Assembly (NCBI GenBank): GCA_031385045.1
Contig: JANNBC010000048.1
Span: forward strand, 54,321 to 118,320
Direction: 5' to 3'
Length of the DNA stretch: 64,000 nt
Origin: a bacterium
Lineage (GTDB): Bacteria; Bdellovibrionota_C; UBA2361; CALJRW01
Shown: piece after piece, positions 39,851-64,000 of the stretch
Position numbering within the stretch: the first letter of the stretch is position 1
How the letters are laid out: every line of letters starts with the position of its first letter
Position numbers and translations under genes: made by a program
The notes under the pieces: generated by a model
Database searches by the model: none
Seen by the model: the letters and a program-made list of their open reading frames with translations, nothing else
Told to the model about the DNA's origin: nothing

Positions 39851-39869
39851 CCCCGACTTCTCTGATACC
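39851..39869 (+). repeat. copy A of the intergenic motif CCCCGAnnTCTCTGATAC
   Basis: ccccgacttctctgatacc, with extra Cs at the 5' side. Intergenic, 150 nt upstream of the ORF at 40018. Confidence 0.5.
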
Positions 39870-50819: not shown

Positions 50820-51464
50820 ATGAAAAACAATTGTAACCCTTATTCTGACTTAATCCACGAATTCTCTGATACCATCTGGAATGGCCTAAACAATCTACAA
50901 CTAGCTGAAATTACAAGTAAATTAACTAGCTACAATGATATTTACCTTGAAATTGGCAGTGGCTCAGGAAATTTTTTAATTAATCTAGCTAGTGCTAATC
51001 CAGACAAATTATACGTTGGAATTGAGCTAAGATATAAACGTTGCGTTAGAACGGTGCAAAAAGCTCAAAAGTTAGCCATTCAAAATCTACTAATTATTAG
51101 AGAAGATGCTAACTTAGTCCTTCCCCAACTTCTCCGAGAATCTATTAGTGGAGTTTATATCAATTTCCCGGATCCGTGGGCAAAAAAACGCTGGCTTAAA
51201 CACCGCATGATTTCTATAAAGTTCCTAGATGAAACCTCTCGTATCTTAAAAAAAGATGGATTTATTAAGCTCAAAACGGATCATTCCGACTATTATTACT
51301 CGAGTAGAGAGATCTTTCAAACTCACTCACAGTTTAAACTGCAAGACTTTTCCGAAGATCTACACAATAGCGACCTAAAAAAAACTAATATTCTTACGGA
51401 ATTTGAGCAGTTATTTCAATCTAAACAAAAACAGATCTACTTTGTACATTTTACACGAAGCTAA
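50820..51464 (+). CDS. trmB: tRNA (guanine46-N7)-methyltransferase TrmB
   Basis: EIGSGSGNFL (SAM motif I) and FPDPWAKKRW. Start set to the internal ATG at 50820 because the longer ORF would overlap the upstream gene, and a TTGACT-N18-CATAAT promoter lies at 50783-50812. Confidence 0.7.
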   Translation: MKNNCNPYSDLIHEFSDTIWNGLNNLQLAEITSKLTSYNDIYLEIGSGSGNFLINLASANPDKLYVGIELRYKRCVRTVQKAQKLAIQNLLIIREDANLVLPQLLRESISGVYINFPDPWAKKRWLKHRMISIKFLDETSRILKKDGFIKLKTDHSDYYYSSREIFQTHSQFKLQDFSEDLHNSDLKKTNILTEFEQLFQSKQKQIYFVHFTRS

Positions 51465-55515: not shown

Positions 55516-57369
55516 ATGATTAACATTAATAGATTAATCAAGTTAAAAGATAAATATCCAGATTTTTTGACTAATCAGGCTGCCTTAAGCCTTTTTTTAG
55601 CTAAGAACTTACCCCTAAGAATTGCGGGAATAACGATTAATCAACCTAATTACTGCCAAAGTACTACTTCCATCAGAGACGAATTACAAAAAATTAACCA
55701 TTTTTTTAAAATCAATTTTCTTACAATTAATGACTCTAATCAATTAAGGGAGGTATTTGAACAGATCCCAACATGCCTAGCAACAGAATATGATCAAAAT
55801 GCTGAAGTGATCTTCGATAACTTACTTTGTAGTCCAGCTAAAAATATTACTGGTACTTTTTATACACCACAAACCATCGCCAGCCTATTAGTGAAAGAGA
55901 CATTAGCTGAAGAACCAAGCATTAATTTTCAATATCTTGATCCAGCCTGTGGGGCAGGTATCTTTCTAAAAGCTTGCCTAAAAATATTTACCGGCAATTC
56001 TGAAAAGAAATTAACATTCATAGAAAATTCTTTATTTGGATATGATATTAATCAACAGGCCATAGAAATTTGTAAGTTCTTACTTTTAATTGAAGCCTTA
56101 AAAGACCACCCCAATCTCAATCGCAAAACCACTCTTCCTGATTTAAGTAAGAATTTTATCTGCCAAAATAGTCTACTCACAGAAATTGCTCAAAAGTTTG
56201 ATTATATCTTTTGTAACCCTCCTTTTGGCTTATCTCGCAATCAACAAATAGAGCAAGGAGAATTGGAAGAACTGACTAGGATTAACAATTGGTTTTTTAC
56301 AGGCAAACTTAATAAATATCTATTATTCTCCTTGAGATGCTTTCAGATGCTTAAGCCACAGGGATCTGCCGGCATCCTAACACCTAACTCTTGGCTAGGT
56401 ATCAGAGATGGCGAGAGCTTCAGGAAATATCTTTTAAATGAAAAAGCCCTGCCTAAGATTTTATGCTTTGAAAAAAAAATCTTCCCAAAACTTGGAGTGG
56501 AAACTGTTATCAGTATAATTTCTAAAAAACCAACTTCAAAGGTAATAATTAAAAAATTTAATCCTGAATTTGAATTAGCTAAATCTACCGAGATTGATCA
56601 TCATGTAATTTCTAATCATAAGAACTGTCTTATTCCCATGATTTGGCATGAGAATTTTCTAAATATTTTTAATCACTTACAAAAAACGACTAGTCCTCTT
56701 TCTGACTCCAAGCTAAATATTACTCCATCGATTGCCCTACAAGTTTATAGCCTAGGTCGTGGAACACCTCCTCAATCTGCAGAAATAGTCAAAAATAATT
56801 CTTTTCATTTTAAGAATAAACATACAGTGACAAGCCACCCTTATCTAAATGGCAAAGACTTAAGCTCCTTTCAGATCAATTGGTCAGGGCAATTCTTAGA
56901 CTACGGCCCCTGGGTAGCTGAATTTCAAGATTTTACACGCTACCAAAAGCCTCGATTACTCCTGAGAGAAGTACTAGGGAAACCACCCTACGTTATCAAG
57001 GCAACTGTAACTCACGAGATCTATTTATATAATAGATCCATTCTACACATCCATGCTCAAGATCCCAAGATTCTGCCACTAATTAATACAATTATGAATT
57101 CAAAATTTGCTAGTTTTTACTTATTGATTAAAGGAAGAAAAACAAACCGTAAAATCTTCCCAAAAATTGTCTTAGATGACCTAAAAGATTTCCCACTGCC
57201 CAATTTAGTCGATTATAATTCAAATGAGCTGAATGTCTTACTGGATAAGCCTTTAACTAGCGAAAATCGTTCATTACTTGATAAATTAGTCTATAAACAA
57301 TATTCTTTAAATTCAGAACAGATTAAGACTATTGAAGATACACTACAAGAATGGAAAGCGACATTTTAA
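55516..57369 (+). CDS. gamma-class N6-adenine DNA methyltransferase (HsdM/Eco57I/TaqI-like), apparently orphan
   Basis: Motif X GTFYTPQTIASLLV, motif I LDPACGAGIFL, motif IV FCNPPFG in the gamma order. A roughly 330-aa C-terminal target-recognition-like domain follows. No nuclease motif. Confidence 0.75.
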   Translation: MININRLIKLKDKYPDFLTNQAALSLFLAKNLPLRIAGITINQPNYCQSTTSIRDELQKINHFFKINFLTINDSNQLREVFEQIPTCLATEYDQNAEVIFDNLLCSPAKNITGTFYTPQTIASLLVKETLAEEPSINFQYLDPACGAGIFLKACLKIFTGNSEKKLTFIENSLFGYDINQQAIEICKFLLLIEALKDHPNLNRKTTLPDLSKNFICQNSLLTEIAQKFDYIFCNPPFGLSRNQQIEQGELEELTRINNWFFTGKLNKYLLFSLRCFQMLKPQGSAGILTPNSWLGIRDGESFRKYLLNEKALPKILCFEKKIFPKLGVETVISIISKKPTSKVIIKKFNPEFELAKSTEIDHHVISNHKNCLIPMIWHENFLNIFNHLQKTTSPLSDSKLNITPSIALQVYSLGRGTPPQSAEIVKNNSFHFKNKHTVTSHPYLNGKDLSSFQINWSGQFLDYGPWVAEFQDFTRYQKPRLLLREVLGKPPYVIKATVTHEIYLYNRSILHIHAQDPKILPLINTIMNSKFASFYLLIKGRKTNRKIFPKIVLDDLKDFPLPNLVDYNSNELNVLLDKPLTSENRSLLDKLVYKQYSLNSEQIKTIEDTLQEWKATF

Positions 57370-59902: not shown

Positions 59903-60313
59903 ATGATTCATAATAATCTAGCGGGATTCACATTAACTGAATTACTATCAGTCATCATGCTTGTAGGAATAGTCTGGGCGATCTCTAATTTAACTGGATC
60001 CGAAATACAAAAAACAATTACAGCTAAAACTGAACTAGAGCAGTTAAAATTAGAATTCGAAAAACAAATATCATATGCAAATATTACCAAAGAAAAAATT
60101 CAAATAATTCCAGAGAATATAAGACTAAAGGTTATCGGGAATAAATTTATCTACGAAATTCCACTAAAAAATCAACTCCTAATTAATTCTAACGAACATC
60201 AACTAAATTTTCACCCCAGGCAAGTTTGCTCTCCAGCCAGTATTTCCTCGAATGCAAATAAAAGCTGTCATTTAATAATCTCCTTGCGATGTCGTATGCG
60301 AATTCAATGCTAA
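59903..60313 (+). CDS. type IV pilin-like / T2SS pseudopilin (GspH/FimT-like)
   Basis: Class III signal peptide MIHNNLAG|FTLTELLSVIMLVGIV, with E at +5. Confidence 0.65.
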   Translation: MIHNNLAGFTLTELLSVIMLVGIVWAISNLTGSEIQKTITAKTELEQLKLEFEKQISYANITKEKIQIIPENIRLKVIGNKFIYEIPLKNQLLINSNEHQLNFHPRQVCSPASISSNANKSCHLIISLRCRMRIQC

Positions 60314-60558
60314 GTTTTAATCATAATGGATTTGGTCTACTCGAAATATTACTTAGCTTAATAATTTTGAGTCTGATGATTGGTTCGATCCTCTCCCTTC
60401 AAAACAAATCATTATTAGAACGCAACATTAGTCGACCAAAGTTCGATTCAGCTTCAGGTGAATTTAAAAATTGCCAAATAAAGAGAATAAAAACTTATAA
60501 GATACTAGTTTGTAATGAACTCAATTTCCCTAATCTTCCAAAATATATCTTCTTTTAA
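60289..60558 (+). CDS. pseudopilin (GspI/PilV-like), small
   Basis: Prepilin motif NHNG|FGLLEILLSLIILSL. Confidence 0.5.
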   Translation: MSYANSMLSFNHNGFGLLEILLSLIILSLMIGSILSLQNKSLLERNISRPKFDSASGEFKNCQIKRIKTYKILVCNELNFPNLPKYIFF

Positions 60559-61399
60559 CATAACTCAAAGGCAACAGGCTTCAAGTCTGATCGAATTACT
60601 AGTAGTAATCTCACTCAGTCTCTTTCTTTCCTTAGTTGGCTATCAAGTCCTAAAAACTTCAATCGCAATTAAAAAAGTTATCGGTATTGATTATCAAAAA
60701 AGTTATCAAGCCGTGCGGCTTAAAAGTTTAATCGAAGATATAATTCAAGATCTCAGCTGGCATACTTTGCCAATTGAACCAAAGATTTTCGGTAAAGGCG
60801 AAATTAATATTGATGGCGATCCATTTCTACTTAGTAGCGATCCATTAAAACTACCAAACGTAAGATCGGATGCGATTAGCTACCTGAGCCTAGATTATTC
60901 TCATTTAATCCATGTTACTTTGAATGAAAATCTAATCTTAGAAGGTTGTAGTGATAAGCTTATTCCTAATATTCTATATAATTTTATTGGAATTGACTTG
61001 GGTGGAGTTAGCTATTTCCAAGGCTATGCTAGAAAAATAGCAGTAGGTTGCTATCAATTCCAAGTTATTCAAATGCCAAATTTAATCTTGGCTAAACGTC
61101 ATGAGAAGTTTCCGATATTTACTAAAATCTTGATTCCAGTGGTTGATGAATATTTAGTATATGTAGATCGAACAAATCAACTTCGATATGTAACACTTAA
61201 AGGCTTAAATATTTTGGAAAACCAGCCAGTTTTTGAAGATGCTCCAGATTTATCACTTAGCCTGATTAAATATGAACAGGTCTGGCAATTAGATTTAAGG
61301 TGGAAATATCCAGAGCAGCTACCAGAGAAAGAATTTAAGCAAGTTGGGACAGCTCGACTTGCTCGCCAGTCACTCGGAAATTTATTATTAAACTTATGA
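60515..61399 (+). CDS. pseudopilin (GspJ/PilW-like)
   Basis: N-terminal …ASSLIELLVVISLSLFL pilin-like hydrophobic helix with E. 294 aa. The start codon is uncertain, since the listed one overlaps the upstream gene by 44 nt. Confidence 0.5.
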   Translation: MNSISLIFQNISSFNITQRQQASSLIELLVVISLSLFLSLVGYQVLKTSIAIKKVIGIDYQKSYQAVRLKSLIEDIIQDLSWHTLPIEPKIFGKGEINIDGDPFLLSSDPLKLPNVRSDAISYLSLDYSHLIHVTLNENLILEGCSDKLIPNILYNFIGIDLGGVSYFQGYARKIAVGCYQFQVIQMPNLILAKRHEKFPIFTKILIPVVDEYLVYVDRTNQLRYVTLKGLNILENQPVFEDAPDLSLSLIKYEQVWQLDLRWKYPEQLPEKEFKQVGTARLARQSLGNLLLNL

Positions 61400-62184
61400 A
61401 AGGTTTAATTAGTATCTACTTACTAATTATCTTAATGATCTCTACAGTATTAATCCTCGGTACATTTGAAGAGACCTTTAGCATGTTAACTCAGATTAAA
61501 TTTAGCATCAGTCATCAAAGAAAAATTGCAAATCAACAAGAAATTTTGCTTGGTCAATTAACAGACCTGGATCCTACCACTTCCCAAAGGAAGTTTTGCG
61601 TTCAGAATCAATCGGAAAAACTTTGTTACTTAAACAATAGTTTATTTGATCAAGGCAATCAGTCCGACATCATTGCAAATCTTAGTAATCAAAATCTACT
61701 ACTAGACTTCGCTAATTATGAACGATTAAGCGAAAAATGTGTTTATTCAATCCCAGCACAAAACCAGCTAGAATGGAACTTGGTTAACCCCAAAACCTGC
61801 TTACAAATTAAATCTTCATTAAAACCTGAAGCTTATTATGAATTTAACTTGGCATTGGAAGATTTTGAAATATCAACTAAGCAACTGTTACTTATAAATG
61901 GATATACTGCAATTAATAACCTACTAGTCATAAAAAATGCTACGATCATTAGTCTTGGAGACTTAATCATCGATAATTTAATCCTTACCGAACAGGCGGA
62001 AATCAATTTAATTTCGGTTCGCGGCAAAGTACATATTCGACATTATAGCGAGGATGCTCATTTGTTTCAGAAAACTGATTCTTGCTGGCAAATTGGCTCT
62101 GGCTATAAAAGACCTTCTATCCCAAATCTAAAATTTATCGAAACAATGGCCTTTAGCCTAACTCCCAAAATCCCAAGCAATTAA
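61396..62184 (+). CDS. pseudopilin (GspK/PilX-like)
   Basis: N-terminal hydrophobic helix MKGLISIYLLIILMISTVLIL without E5, as in GspK. Last gene of the four-gene cluster, with a 4-nt overlap. Confidence 0.45.
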   Translation: MKGLISIYLLIILMISTVLILGTFEETFSMLTQIKFSISHQRKIANQQEILLGQLTDLDPTTSQRKFCVQNQSEKLCYLNNSLFDQGNQSDIIANLSNQNLLLDFANYERLSEKCVYSIPAQNQLEWNLVNPKTCLQIKSSLKPEAYYEFNLALEDFEISTKQLLLINGYTAINNLLVIKNATIISLGDLIIDNLILTEQAEINLISVRGKVHIRHYSEDAHLFQKTDSCWQIGSGYKRPSIPNLKFIETMAFSLTPKIPSN

Positions 62185-62221: not shown

Positions 62222-62240
62222 CCCCGAGTTCTCTGATACC
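62222..62240 (+). repeat. copy B1 of the intergenic motif
   Basis: ccccgagttctctgatacc. Confidence 0.5.
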
Positions 62241-62270: not shown

Positions 62271-62290
62271 CTCCCGATATCTCTGATACT
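62271..62290 (+). repeat. copy B2 of the intergenic motif
   Basis: ctcccgatatctctgatact, 22 nt upstream of a TGgTATATA extended -10 box. Confidence 0.5.
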
Positions 62291-62309
62291 TGGGTTTTAA
62301 GTGAAGTCT

Positions 62310-62318
62310 TGGTATATA
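62310..62318 (+). promoter_or_regulatory. extended -10 element TGgTATATA, 8 nt upstream of the ATG at 62327 (leaderless-type promoter candidate)
   Basis: Read directly from the sequence; no SD. Motif copy B2 occupies the -35 region. Confidence 0.35.
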
Positions 62319-62326
62319 GATAACTA

Positions 62327-63196
62327 ATGATTATCATTCACACCGCAATTCACCCGGAAGCCAAACCACTAATTTCCATGTTACAGCTAAAACGGGACTT
62401 AGATTTTGCTGTTTTCGAATTATACCAAAATAAGGAATTTGCTTTAGTTGTCTCAGGGATTGGTAAAGTTAATACTGCAATTGCCTTAGCTACAGCTATT
62501 CAATATTTAAAAGGACAAGGACAGCTTATCTCTGGCTCAACCCTAGTAAACTTCGGCTTAGCTGGAGGAACAGGGGAATTTCAATTTGGAGAATTATACT
62601 ATGTTCAAAAAATTACTGACCAAGCAACAGAGGCAAACTACTATCCAGACTTAATTTATAAACATCAACTACCTCCCGCAATCTTAACAACATTTGATCG
62701 CCCAGTTGCTCGTGCTAGCTTTCCAGAATTATCTAATACTCTTGTGGACATGGAGGCTTCCGCATTTTTTCACACAGCAAATAAATTTGTTGATGTCCAT
62801 CAAATTCATTGCCTTAAAATTTTGATTGATCATTTAGCTCCAGAAGACTTTAAAATTGATCTTGTCAGTGAATTAATTGATAAAAAGCTCAACCTAATAA
62901 AAGACTTTTTAGATTCCTTACCTAGATCTCCAATCTTAGAAGACTTAAGTCTAAATGAGATTGCCGAAGAGCAAACAATTGAAAAAGTGATTGCTGATTT
63001 AAAACTGAGTAAATCGCAAGCACAACAACTTCGAGATCTAGTAATGCAATACCACACGATGACTCACCTACTCTTTGCTGATTTTATTCGAAGCTATCAT
63101 TACCGAGTCTCGGAACACAAAAGTATTAATGCCAACAGTTTTGAAAAACTAAAAGCAAAACTATCAATTGAAATTGGAAAGCACCTTGGAAACTAA
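62327..63196 (+). CDS. PNP/UDP-1 family nucleosidase (methylthioadenosine (MTA)/S-adenosylhomocysteine (SAH) nucleosidase or futalosine hydrolase MqnB-like) with a C-terminal extension
   Basis: ALVVSGIGKVNTAIALATAIQYL, NFGLAGG and VDMEASAFFH align with E. coli MtnN blocks (SGIGKVAAALGAT, NTGSAGG, VEMEATAIAH). Confidence 0.65.
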   Translation: MIIIHTAIHPEAKPLISMLQLKRDLDFAVFELYQNKEFALVVSGIGKVNTAIALATAIQYLKGQGQLISGSTLVNFGLAGGTGEFQFGELYYVQKITDQATEANYYPDLIYKHQLPPAILTTFDRPVARASFPELSNTLVDMEASAFFHTANKFVDVHQIHCLKILIDHLAPEDFKIDLVSELIDKKLNLIKDFLDSLPRSPILEDLSLNEIAEEQTIEKVIADLKLSKSQAQQLRDLVMQYHTMTHLLFADFIRSYHYRVSEHKSINANSFEKLKAKLSIEIGKHLGN

Positions 63197-64000
63197 ATTA
63201 AGCCGTGCCTTTGATACGATTTATATTGAGAAAGATGCCAAAGATTACCCAGTTACAATTAATATTCTAAACCAATTTAAAAAATCACAGCAAATTTCCA
63301 TCAATTCGTATCAAGAAATATTTAATCGTAATCGACAAGATTTTAGACAACAAAAGCTCTCGCCCAAGCTGATTTTGGCGATTAAAAAAGATTCCTATCT
63401 TTACCCTGGGAGCTCTTTTACTCCAAGCTTTAACCAACCACATTTCTTTTATAATGCAATGGCTCTAAACTGCCTATATGACTGTAGTTATTGCTACTTA
63501 CAAGGCATGTTTAACTCAGCAAATTTAGTAATCTTTGTTAATGAACAAGATTTCTATCAAGCAACATTAGATAAGCTAAAAGAATTAGGAAGTTTGTACT
63601 TAAGTATTTCCTATGATACTGATTTACTAGCAATTGAACATTTAACTGGCTACTGTGCAAAGTGGATCACACTTTGTCAGCAGAACCCGAAACTCCTTGT
63701 CGAATCAAGAACTAAAAGTGTCAACTTTAATGCCATCAAAGAGCTAGCTCCAGTTGATAATTTTATTTTATCTTGGACACTGAGTCCACTAAGCGTGAGC
63801 CAAAGGATTGAAATTAATACTCCAAGTCTTGTTAGTAAAATAAAAGCTATTCAGAATGCCCAAGCACAGGGATGGAAAGTTAGAATCTGCTTTGACCCAC
63901 TATTAATGCACGTAGATTGGGCTAAGCAATATAAAGATCTAATCAAATTAATTAATAGTGAATTAGACTTAAATTTGATTAGAGATTTTAGTATTGGAAG
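63186..64000 (+). CDS. spore-photoproduct-lyase (SplB)-like radical SAM enzyme. 3' end beyond the window; putative TTG start
   Basis: Open frame from 63153 to the window end. IYIEKDAKDYP, CLYDCSYCYLQ (CX3CX2C) and the downstream blocks align with B. subtilis SplB (VYIEPRALEYP, CMGHCHYCYLQ…). Not in the ORF track because it is unterminated. Confidence 0.7.
   Translation, partial: METKLSRAFDTIYIEKDAKDYPVTINILNQFKKSQQISINSYQEIFNRNRQDFRQQKLSPKLILAIKKDSYLYPGSSFTPSFNQPHFFYNAMALNCLYDCSYCYLQGMFNSANLVIFVNEQDFYQATLDKLKELGSLYLSISYDTDLLAIEHLTGYCAKWITLCQQNPKLLVESRTKSVNFNAIKELAPVDNFILSWTLSPLSVSQRIEINTPSLVSKIKAIQNAQAQGWKVRICFDPLLMHVDWAKQYKDLIKLINSELDLNLIRDFSIG

Follow-up and report, generated by a model that had tools for sequence, protein, structure and literature searches.

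A widespread family of spore photoproduct lyase-like radical SAM proteins coupled to an MTAN-fold nucleosidase

At the end of a 64,000-nucleotide stretch of a bacterial contig (JANNBC010000048.1, positions 54,321 to 118,320 of the forward strand; assembly GCA_031385045.1, lineage Bdellovibrionota_C), here called the window, a gene for a nucleosidase-like protein with the fold of methylthioadenosine/S-adenosylhomocysteine nucleosidase (MTAN) overlaps the start of a gene for a radical S-adenosylmethionine (SAM) protein of the spore photoproduct lyase (SPL) family. We found that the overlap reflects a genuine gene pair, conserved across many lineages and frequently fused, and that the system the two genes encode is an uncharacterized, widespread variant of an SPL-fold radical SAM enzyme joined to an MTAN-fold hydrolase in an unusual, obligatory coupling. 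Literature searches on the pair or the family returned nothing specific. Judged by profile scores, neither window protein is an orthologue of the named enzymes SplB, MtnN or futalosine hydrolase, their matches holding at the superfamily level. We consider it likely that the nucleosidase acts on a SAM-derived product of its radical SAM partner that bears a 5'-deoxyadenosyl unit, and that this partner is no spore photoproduct lyase. The features of the locus are as follows.

62327..63196, + strand: MTAN-fold nucleosidase-like gene, ATG start, 289 aa (Pfam, NCBIfam, AlphaFold2/Foldseek and conserved catalytic residues)
63168..64000, + strand: SPL-family radical SAM gene, open at the window end, 277 of the inferred 340 codons readable
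63168..63196, + strand: overlap of the nucleosidase stop and the radical SAM start, with candidate TTG starts at 63168, 63174 and 63186
63471-63494, + strand: [4Fe-4S] motif C102-x3-C106-x2-C109 of the SPL-like protein (CLYDCSYC)
62223-62239 and 62273-62289, + strand: two copies of the 17-nt motif CCCGAnnTCTCTGATAC within the 142-nt intergenic stretch that precedes the nucleosidase gene

The nucleosidase open reading frame (ORF) ends at 63196, as the earlier note had read it, and carries the MtnN-like blocks SGIGKV, GLAGG and VDMEAS together with a PNP_UDP_1 match. The SPL-like ORF lies in the +2 frame and runs on to base 64000, with TIYIEKDAKDYP and CLYDCSYCYLQ. Its TTG initiation and SplB signature (CLYDCSYCYLQ) had been recognized correctly; the start had been placed at about 63186, while gene callers favor 63168, whose equivalent TTG is the one picked in the two closest relatives (P0099 and P0100). 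Counted from 63168 the overlap measures 29 nt, and from 63186 it measures 11 nt; a 29-nt overlap is likewise called in a Leptospira locus (L003) and in the closest genome, 'Bdellovibrionota bacterium JTS-AC222' (L001/L007), whose nucleosidase (P0002) is 76% identical at the amino acid level and lies on a syntenic contig. This arrangement suggests translational coupling. Over the 277 readable codons the window SPL-like gene differs in one residue (Y149N) from the metagenome protein P0100, and because this near-identical protein has 340 aa, we infer the same length for the window gene.

The SPL-like family was scanned with a 28-sequence alignment (A1) against one genome per species (GTDB). At least 590 loci were confirmed. 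From these we took the best 80 (21 Leptospiraceae, about 16 Bdellovibrionota-like, 8 Verrucomicrobiota, 4 Lentisphaerota, 4 Balneolales, 3 Bacteroidota, 1 Gemmatimonadota, 1 Burkholderiales and 18 Firmicutes) and searched them with purpose-built profile hidden Markov models (HMMs). The nucleosidase gene lies on the same strand, with its stop at most 150 nt from the SPL-like start, in 74 of the 80, and in about 70 the stop falls 22-35 nt inside the SPL-like profile. The six other loci comprise one fusion (L062, a single 649-aa ORF), two with a 157-nt gap, two Lentisphaerales loci with the nucleosidase gene 2.9-4 kb upstream, and one short contig with none. In a HMMER search of 1.84 billion cluster representatives, 693 clusters were retrieved at E ≤ 1e-30, which puts the family at no fewer than 693 clusters at 50% identity. 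Among the 150 best representatives, 39 are nucleosidase-SPL fusions of 460-756 aa with the nucleosidase domain at the N-terminus. Simple frameshifts of overlapping genes do not account for the fusions, since those with a full-length nucleosidase match have some 40 aa of linker between the two domains, and the fusion of the two proteins provides strong Rosetta-stone evidence that they work together. The two-gene module proposed from the window alone, and the conservation of the gene pair across relatives, are thus borne out by adjacency in many phyla and fusion in many lineages.

The family spans about 10 phyla and includes the pathogens Leptospira interrogans and Fusobacterium varium. The host of the window had been taken to be a non-sporeformer, and its lipid A acyltransferase and outer-membrane proteins are consistent with a Gram-negative non-sporeformer; as a special feature of the system this did not stand, since the same module is found in sporeforming Clostridia and Bacillales (the sporeformers among the 18 Firmicutes include Clostridium, Caloramator, Tepidibacillus, Tepidibacter, Thermobrachium and Thermotalea). 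The family differs from SplB in occurring mostly in non-sporeformers and in having a nucleosidase partner.

The SPL-like protein has the fold of SPL over its full length, a structural similarity that the earlier note had suggested testing. An AlphaFold2 model of the ortholog P0099 (predicted local distance difference test score, pLDDT, of 92) was matched by Foldseek to the SPL of Geobacillus thermodenitrificans (PDB 4FHC) with a template modeling (TM) score of 0.82, an E-value of 7e-22 and 18% identity; the hits that follow, MqnE (TM 0.46), PFL-AE and LipA, stay at TM ≤ 0.5, the generic radical SAM level. The match to the Pfam SPL family PF20903 reaches 59-60 bits (cutoff 27), and the CX3CX2C motif with a Tyr between the second and third Cys and the N-terminal IYIE block are shared with SplB as well. 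In contrast, the scores against the SplB equivalog TIGR04070 (cutoff 400 bits) are 67.8 for the window fragment, 69.4 for P0100 and 73.2 for the Leptospira protein P0125, and those against TIGR03886 are about 50-67 bits versus a cutoff of 437.

The family departs from SplB in its active site. According to the SPL crystal structure, Cys140 is the H-atom donor, for which clostridia use an upstream Cys77 instead, the lesion bases are bound by Arg193 and Glu268, among others, and Tyr98 is a relay candidate (PMC3467042). Cys140 in G. thermodenitrificans corresponds to Cys141 in B. subtilis. We aligned 270 family sequences to 4FHC by HMM and found the three cluster Cys to be invariant in all 270, while the Cys140 column holds Tyr in 259 and Phe in 9 but never Cys, the Arg193 column holds Ala or Ser but never Arg, and the Glu268 column holds Gly but never Glu; a hairpin is also shorter than in SplB. 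Tyr108, the equivalent of B. subtilis Tyr97, is invariant, whereas at the equivalent of B. subtilis Tyr99, 108 of the 150 best representatives have Tyr and 119 of 120 members of the gammaproteobacterial clade have Phe. Apart from the three cluster ligands, no conserved Cys was found in the 28-sequence alignment, including the N-terminal side of the motif, where the clostridial-type Cys77 donor has no counterpart. Hence, where the earlier note had looked to the completed ORF for the SPL-specific C-terminal region and a second conserved Cys/Tyr, the SPL-like protein has the C-terminal region and the tyrosines but lacks the second conserved Cys, and its lesion pocket is rebuilt. With its full SPL fold and remodeled active site, it probably acts on a substrate other than the spore photoproduct. 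At window positions 63612-63614, which fall in the Cys140 column, P0100 has Asn, while the window shares its Tyr with the majority of the family; the Asn may reflect either natural variation or an error in sequencing.

The nucleosidase is similarly related to its namesakes at a distance. It matches Pfam PNP_UDP_1 with 31 bits (cutoff 25.1), and its best NCBIfam match is the futalosine hydrolase model MqnB TIGR03664 (34.4 bits versus a cutoff of 124.7); the MtnN models TIGR01704, PRK05584 and PRK07164 give 13.1, 21.5 and 31.7 bits against cutoffs of 73.8, 169 and 161, and the HpnG model is not among the six NCBIfam models matching at E ≤ 0.1. The AlphaFold2 model (pLDDT 87) retrieved more than 40 MTAN structures and the Helicobacter pylori futalosine hydrolase in Foldseek, all with probability 1.0, a TM score of about 0.67 per target and at most 21% identity. 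In a profile alignment to MTANs of the PDB, residues E11, E143 and D168 correspond to E12, E174 and D197 of E. coli MtnN: Glu11 of 'ALxxEA' falls within the N-terminal MTAN block that holds Glu12, 'DMEAS' aligns with the (M)E motif of Glu174, and 'SD' aligns with the MTAN 'VSD' of Asp197. The family thus shares with MtnN (Pfs), MqnB and the MTANs of H. pylori and Campylobacter jejuni the PNP_UDP_1 fold, the equivalents of Glu12, Met173-Glu174 and Ser196-Asp197, and the GIGK and NxGxAGG loops. The three catalytic positions are kept in 26-28 of 28 fused, 77-79 of 80 adjacent and all 93 of 93 stand-alone nucleosidases. Based on this conservation, the protein is predicted to be a catalytically competent purine N-ribosyl hydrolase, and because the MTAN catalytic residues are retained, hydrolysis of a 5'-deoxyadenosyl nucleoside is plausible. 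A role as a degenerate, non-catalytic adaptor was rejected in view of the conserved catalytic residues. In the window protein, Ile precedes the catalytic Asp (residues 167-168, positions 62825-62830) at the equivalent of Ser196, a position that is Ser in 75 of the 80 adjacent homologues.

Unlike MtnN and MqnB, the nucleosidase has a shortened catalytic core (about residues 1-180) followed by a family-specific, conserved helical C-terminal extension of about 90 aa (about residues 200-289 in the model and the alignment) that has no MTAN counterpart, and its gene overlaps or is fused to a radical SAM gene. The extension of roughly 60 aa noticed earlier was confirmed: the protein is about 57 aa longer than MtnN, and the structure assigns slightly more to the added part.

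A classical short-chain dehydrogenase/reductase (SDR) gene of about 240 aa lies directly downstream of the SPL-like gene in 51 of the 80 loci, among them pathogenic-clade Leptospira, Clostridia, other Bdellovibrionota, Opitutales and Balneolales, and was found in Fusobacterium varium and Clostridium muellerianum as well. This SDR gene is missing from the window and from the 20-kb syntenic region of JTS-AC222. A profile search for the SDR sub-family gave only generic SDR matches, and no other neighbor, repair genes included, is conserved across the 80 loci. The usual position of the SDR downstream of the SPL-like gene points to small-molecule chemistry. In a metagenome scan started from the nucleosidase, a large methanotroph-type clade was found to have the nucleosidase gene by itself, and in Methylobacter genomes an SPL-like-SDR operon lies at another site than the nucleosidase. 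Genomes with the lone nucleosidase therefore carry all three genes, although unlinked, which weakens the idea that these lone nucleosidases are independent of a radical SAM enzyme. The Methylococcales arrangement, with SPL-like gene and SDR linked and the nucleosidase apart, fits a main pathway in which the radical SAM enzyme is followed by the SDR and the nucleosidase is accessory.

Several individual loci were recorded. In Methylobacter sp. G7 (L170 6001-7697) the SPL-like gene overlaps the SDR gene within a single operon, and in a Methylomonas locus (L005 6001-6840) the nucleosidase-like gene stands alone. The lone methanotroph gene adjoins a gene for a SirB-like membrane protein or a homoserine-kinase-like gene. 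SPL-like proteins of the methanotroph clade have Phe at the equivalent of B. subtilis Tyr99 and Arg in the Cys241 column. A metagenome contig (L164 4998-6292) carries a shortened nucleosidase-like ORF directly ahead of a module-type SDR (196 bits), with no intervening SPL-like gene, which may be a deletion derivative.

Our preferred, still tentative, explanation of the sequence evidence gives the nucleosidase the role of a dedicated partner, which would remove 5'-deoxyadenosine from an enzyme consuming SAM stoichiometrically, whose substrate is probably a small molecule. The two genes would encode a physically coupled enzyme pair, which the C-terminal helical extension of the nucleosidase may tether together. 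The radical SAM enzyme would act on a probable small molecule, and the co-operonic SDR would process its product in most lineages. The loss of the H-donor Cys, which is part of the proposed SAM-regenerating relay, makes it probable that one SAM is used per turnover and 5'-deoxyadenosine set free. MTAN hydrolyzes 5'-deoxyadenosine, and this compound inhibits radical SAM enzymes; the nucleosidase would accordingly split it at its source into adenine and 5-deoxyribose, thereby relieving product inhibition and drawing the reaction forward. Several points weigh against this explanation. We know of no other H-abstracting radical SAM family with a dedicated or fused nucleosidase, and 5'-deoxyadenosine is normally cleared by the housekeeping MTAN. 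The nucleosidase is far from MtnN (at most 21% identity; 13-34 bits versus 74-169), with its shortened core and extra domain, a divergence that would be unnecessary if ordinary 5'-deoxyadenosine were the substrate. Finally, a SAM-regenerating relay is possible, given the invariant Tyr108 and the Tyr at the Cys140 position.

The divergence of the nucleosidase can also be taken to suggest a non-standard 5' substituent, as would be expected if the SPL-fold enzyme added the 5'-deoxyadenosyl radical to an unsaturated acceptor, the nucleosidase stripped adenine to leave a ribosyl product, and the SDR reduced the sugar, giving for instance a ribityl or tetrol chain. We regard such radical adenosylation as a close rival, somewhat less likely than removal of the by-product. 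MqnE is an adenosyl-transferring radical SAM enzyme paired with a PNP_UDP_1 nucleosidase, MqnB, and the best NCBIfam match of the window nucleosidase is a futalosine hydrolase, although the score of 34 bits lies far under the cutoff of 125. The radical SAM families that we know to be linked genetically to such a nucleosidase all transfer adenosyl units, the nucleosidase taking adenine off the 5'-deoxyadenosyl unit; the other case is HpnH with HpnG (PMC13459092). The three genes would match three chemically required steps, with the SDR present in the 51 loci noted above, and the fusions are compatible with channeling. MqnE is the next Foldseek match after SPL, but at a generic level no better than that of PFL-AE or LipA. 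SPL, the sole characterized relative, abstracts hydrogen. In contrast to HpnH and MqnE, the window radical SAM protein belongs to the SPL family, neither hopanoid nor menaquinone genes lie nearby (there are no mqn genes among the conserved neighbors of the module and no hpn genes near it), and adenosylation is here only a proposal. Moreover, no acceptor can be proposed, no conserved gene would supply one, and the supposed middle enzyme is the very gene that is unlinked in Methylococcales. A fuller form of the idea, to which we give marginally less credit, is that the SPL-fold enzyme would found a new radical SAM adenosyl-transferase family beside MqnE, HpnH and ArsS, its three-step cassette grafting a SAM-derived five-carbon ribosyl or ribityl unit onto a common cellular acceptor. 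If so, the product would be an unknown metabolite or lipid of Leptospira, Bdellovibrionota, Verrucomicrobiota, Clostridia, Fusobacterium and methanotrophs.

The tight linkage of SPL-like gene and SDR, in the same 51 loci and in Methylobacter, could also reflect a nucleoside or sugar pathway that uses the nucleosidase on a purine nucleoside in its first or last step. The ribose would then be remodeled by the radical SAM enzyme together with the SDR, for example by radical diol dehydration and keto reduction as in AprD4/AprD3, or by a C-S or C-C lyase reaction on a ribose derivative such as methylthioribose or S-ribosylhomocysteine. In AprD4/AprD3 a radical SAM enzyme and an SDR are known to carry out a deoxygenation together, with a radical SAM gene followed by a classical SDR gene in one operon, but that system includes no nucleosidase, and the likeness is one of gene order. 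Both the Asp that protonates the purine and the Glu that binds the ribose are retained in the nucleosidase. However, no specific pointer to any substrate was found, no transporter, kinase or riboswitch is conserved near the module, and such a pathway does not call for a fusion to the nucleosidase; we judge it improbable. We hold it more improbable still that, in the manner of the repair model of the earlier note, a thymine-dimer-type lesion in DNA or RNA is reversed directly by the SPL-like enzyme while the nucleosidase clears 5'-deoxyadenosine. In favor of this model are the IYIE block, the CxxxCxYCY motif, the invariant Tyr108 and the fact that other SplB-like families of non-sporeformers are regulated by DNA damage (PMC4951493, PMC8565304, PMC3765255). 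Sporeformers, however, already carry splB, and the module is found in them too. None of the 270 sequences retains the lesion ligands Arg193 and Glu268 or the H-donor Cys140, scores against the SplB and TIGR03886 equivalogs range over 50-73 bits (68-73 for SplB) versus cutoffs of 400-437, and the sole conserved neighbor is the SDR rather than a repair gene. The other SplB-like families, LexA-regulated proteins of COG1533 and TIGR03886 and those of TIGR03916 associated with uracil-DNA glycosylase (UDG), carry the annotation 'DNA photolyase/SplB' outside sporeformers, and their genes lie in SOS regulons or beside UDG or ImuB-C genes (PMC4951493, PMC8565304, PMC3765255). The window family has no SOS box and other neighbors, and scores below the TIGR03886 cutoff. 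No exact LexA-box consensus of the relevant clades was found upstream in the 80 loci or in the window, in a search for exact motifs that covered Leptospira, Clostridia, Bdellovibrionota and Verrucomicrobia loci; on this lack of consensus boxes in the 80 upstream regions we rejected SOS/LexA control of the module. The repair claim is thus not supported.

Two further candidates were considered and rejected. Queuosine salvage uses a QueK nucleosidase and a radical SAM queuine lyase, QueL (PMC11477304, PMC11130926). No QueL-like family occurs among the NCBIfam matches and no queuine-lyase structure among the top 50 Foldseek matches; neither a preQ1 riboswitch nor a QrtT transporter lies nearby, and QueK belongs to a different nucleosidase family. 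Anti-phage defense through PNP-domain effectors was dismissed as well, there being no PADLOC match for the nucleosidase, the SPL-like protein or the SDR. On viral contigs the module is essentially absent, with only two remote relatives at 21-24% identity.

Upstream of the module, the motif CCCGAnnTCTCTGATAC may be a candidate operator or promoter element, perhaps of an unknown regulon. It has four matches in the window, versus 0.01 expected by chance, all on the + strand, intergenic and upstream of + strand genes.

39852-39868, + strand: intergenic, upstream of a 196-aa ORF of no known kind
50856-50872, + strand: intergenic, upstream of a TrmB-like methyltransferase gene
62223-62239, + strand: intergenic, upstream of the nucleosidase gene
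62273-62289, + strand: intergenic, upstream of the nucleosidase gene

The four sites have only the 17-nt core in common. The relative with 76% identity keeps both copies upstream of the nucleosidase gene but not the sequence that separates them. Positions 62309-62337 hold a weak sigma-70-like site. Nothing consistent was found among Rfam elements upstream of the module in 24 loci. One Eubacteriales metagenome-assembled genome has a c-di-GMP-I riboswitch (L056 4098-4185; 83 bits) some 0.9 kb before the nucleosidase gene, which probably acts on a gene that lies in between.

The genes upstream of the module in JTS-AC222 match those of the window (a TraB-family gene and a SIS+CBS isomerase gene), and its 340-aa SPL-like gene is followed by HSP20. 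Where the window has a prepilin-like cluster, it carries three unannotated ORFs. In the window, four successive + strand ORFs at 59903-62184, none with a Pfam match, immediately precede the module; an N-terminus of the prepilin type (AGFTLTELL) is present in at least one and comparable hydrophobic leaders in the rest, so that the group looks like a pseudopilin or type IV pilin-like operon. Further upstream, the syntenic counterpart in JTS-AC222 of a 617-aa ORF of the window (55516-57369) carries N6_Mtase, Eco57I and TaqI_C domains, and on this basis the ORF is assigned as a type IIG-like restriction-modification enzyme kept in both Bdellovibrionota genomes.

To our knowledge, the SPL fold has until now been regarded as having a single function and as confined to endospore formers. 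Our analysis adds a discrete SPL sister family with a frequently fused MTAN-like partner and, usually, an SDR, and the annotations 'DNA photolyase' and 'spore photoproduct lyase' on SPL-like genes are probably wrong. The natural fusion proteins are ready-made constructs for biochemistry. Should the system transfer the adenosyl radical, it would be a further case of radical adenosylation making an unknown metabolite. If the nucleosidase does remove the by-product, the SPL-like protein would be the first radical SAM enzyme with built-in 5'-deoxyadenosine removal, which would bear on the understanding and engineering of product-inhibited radical SAM catalysis.

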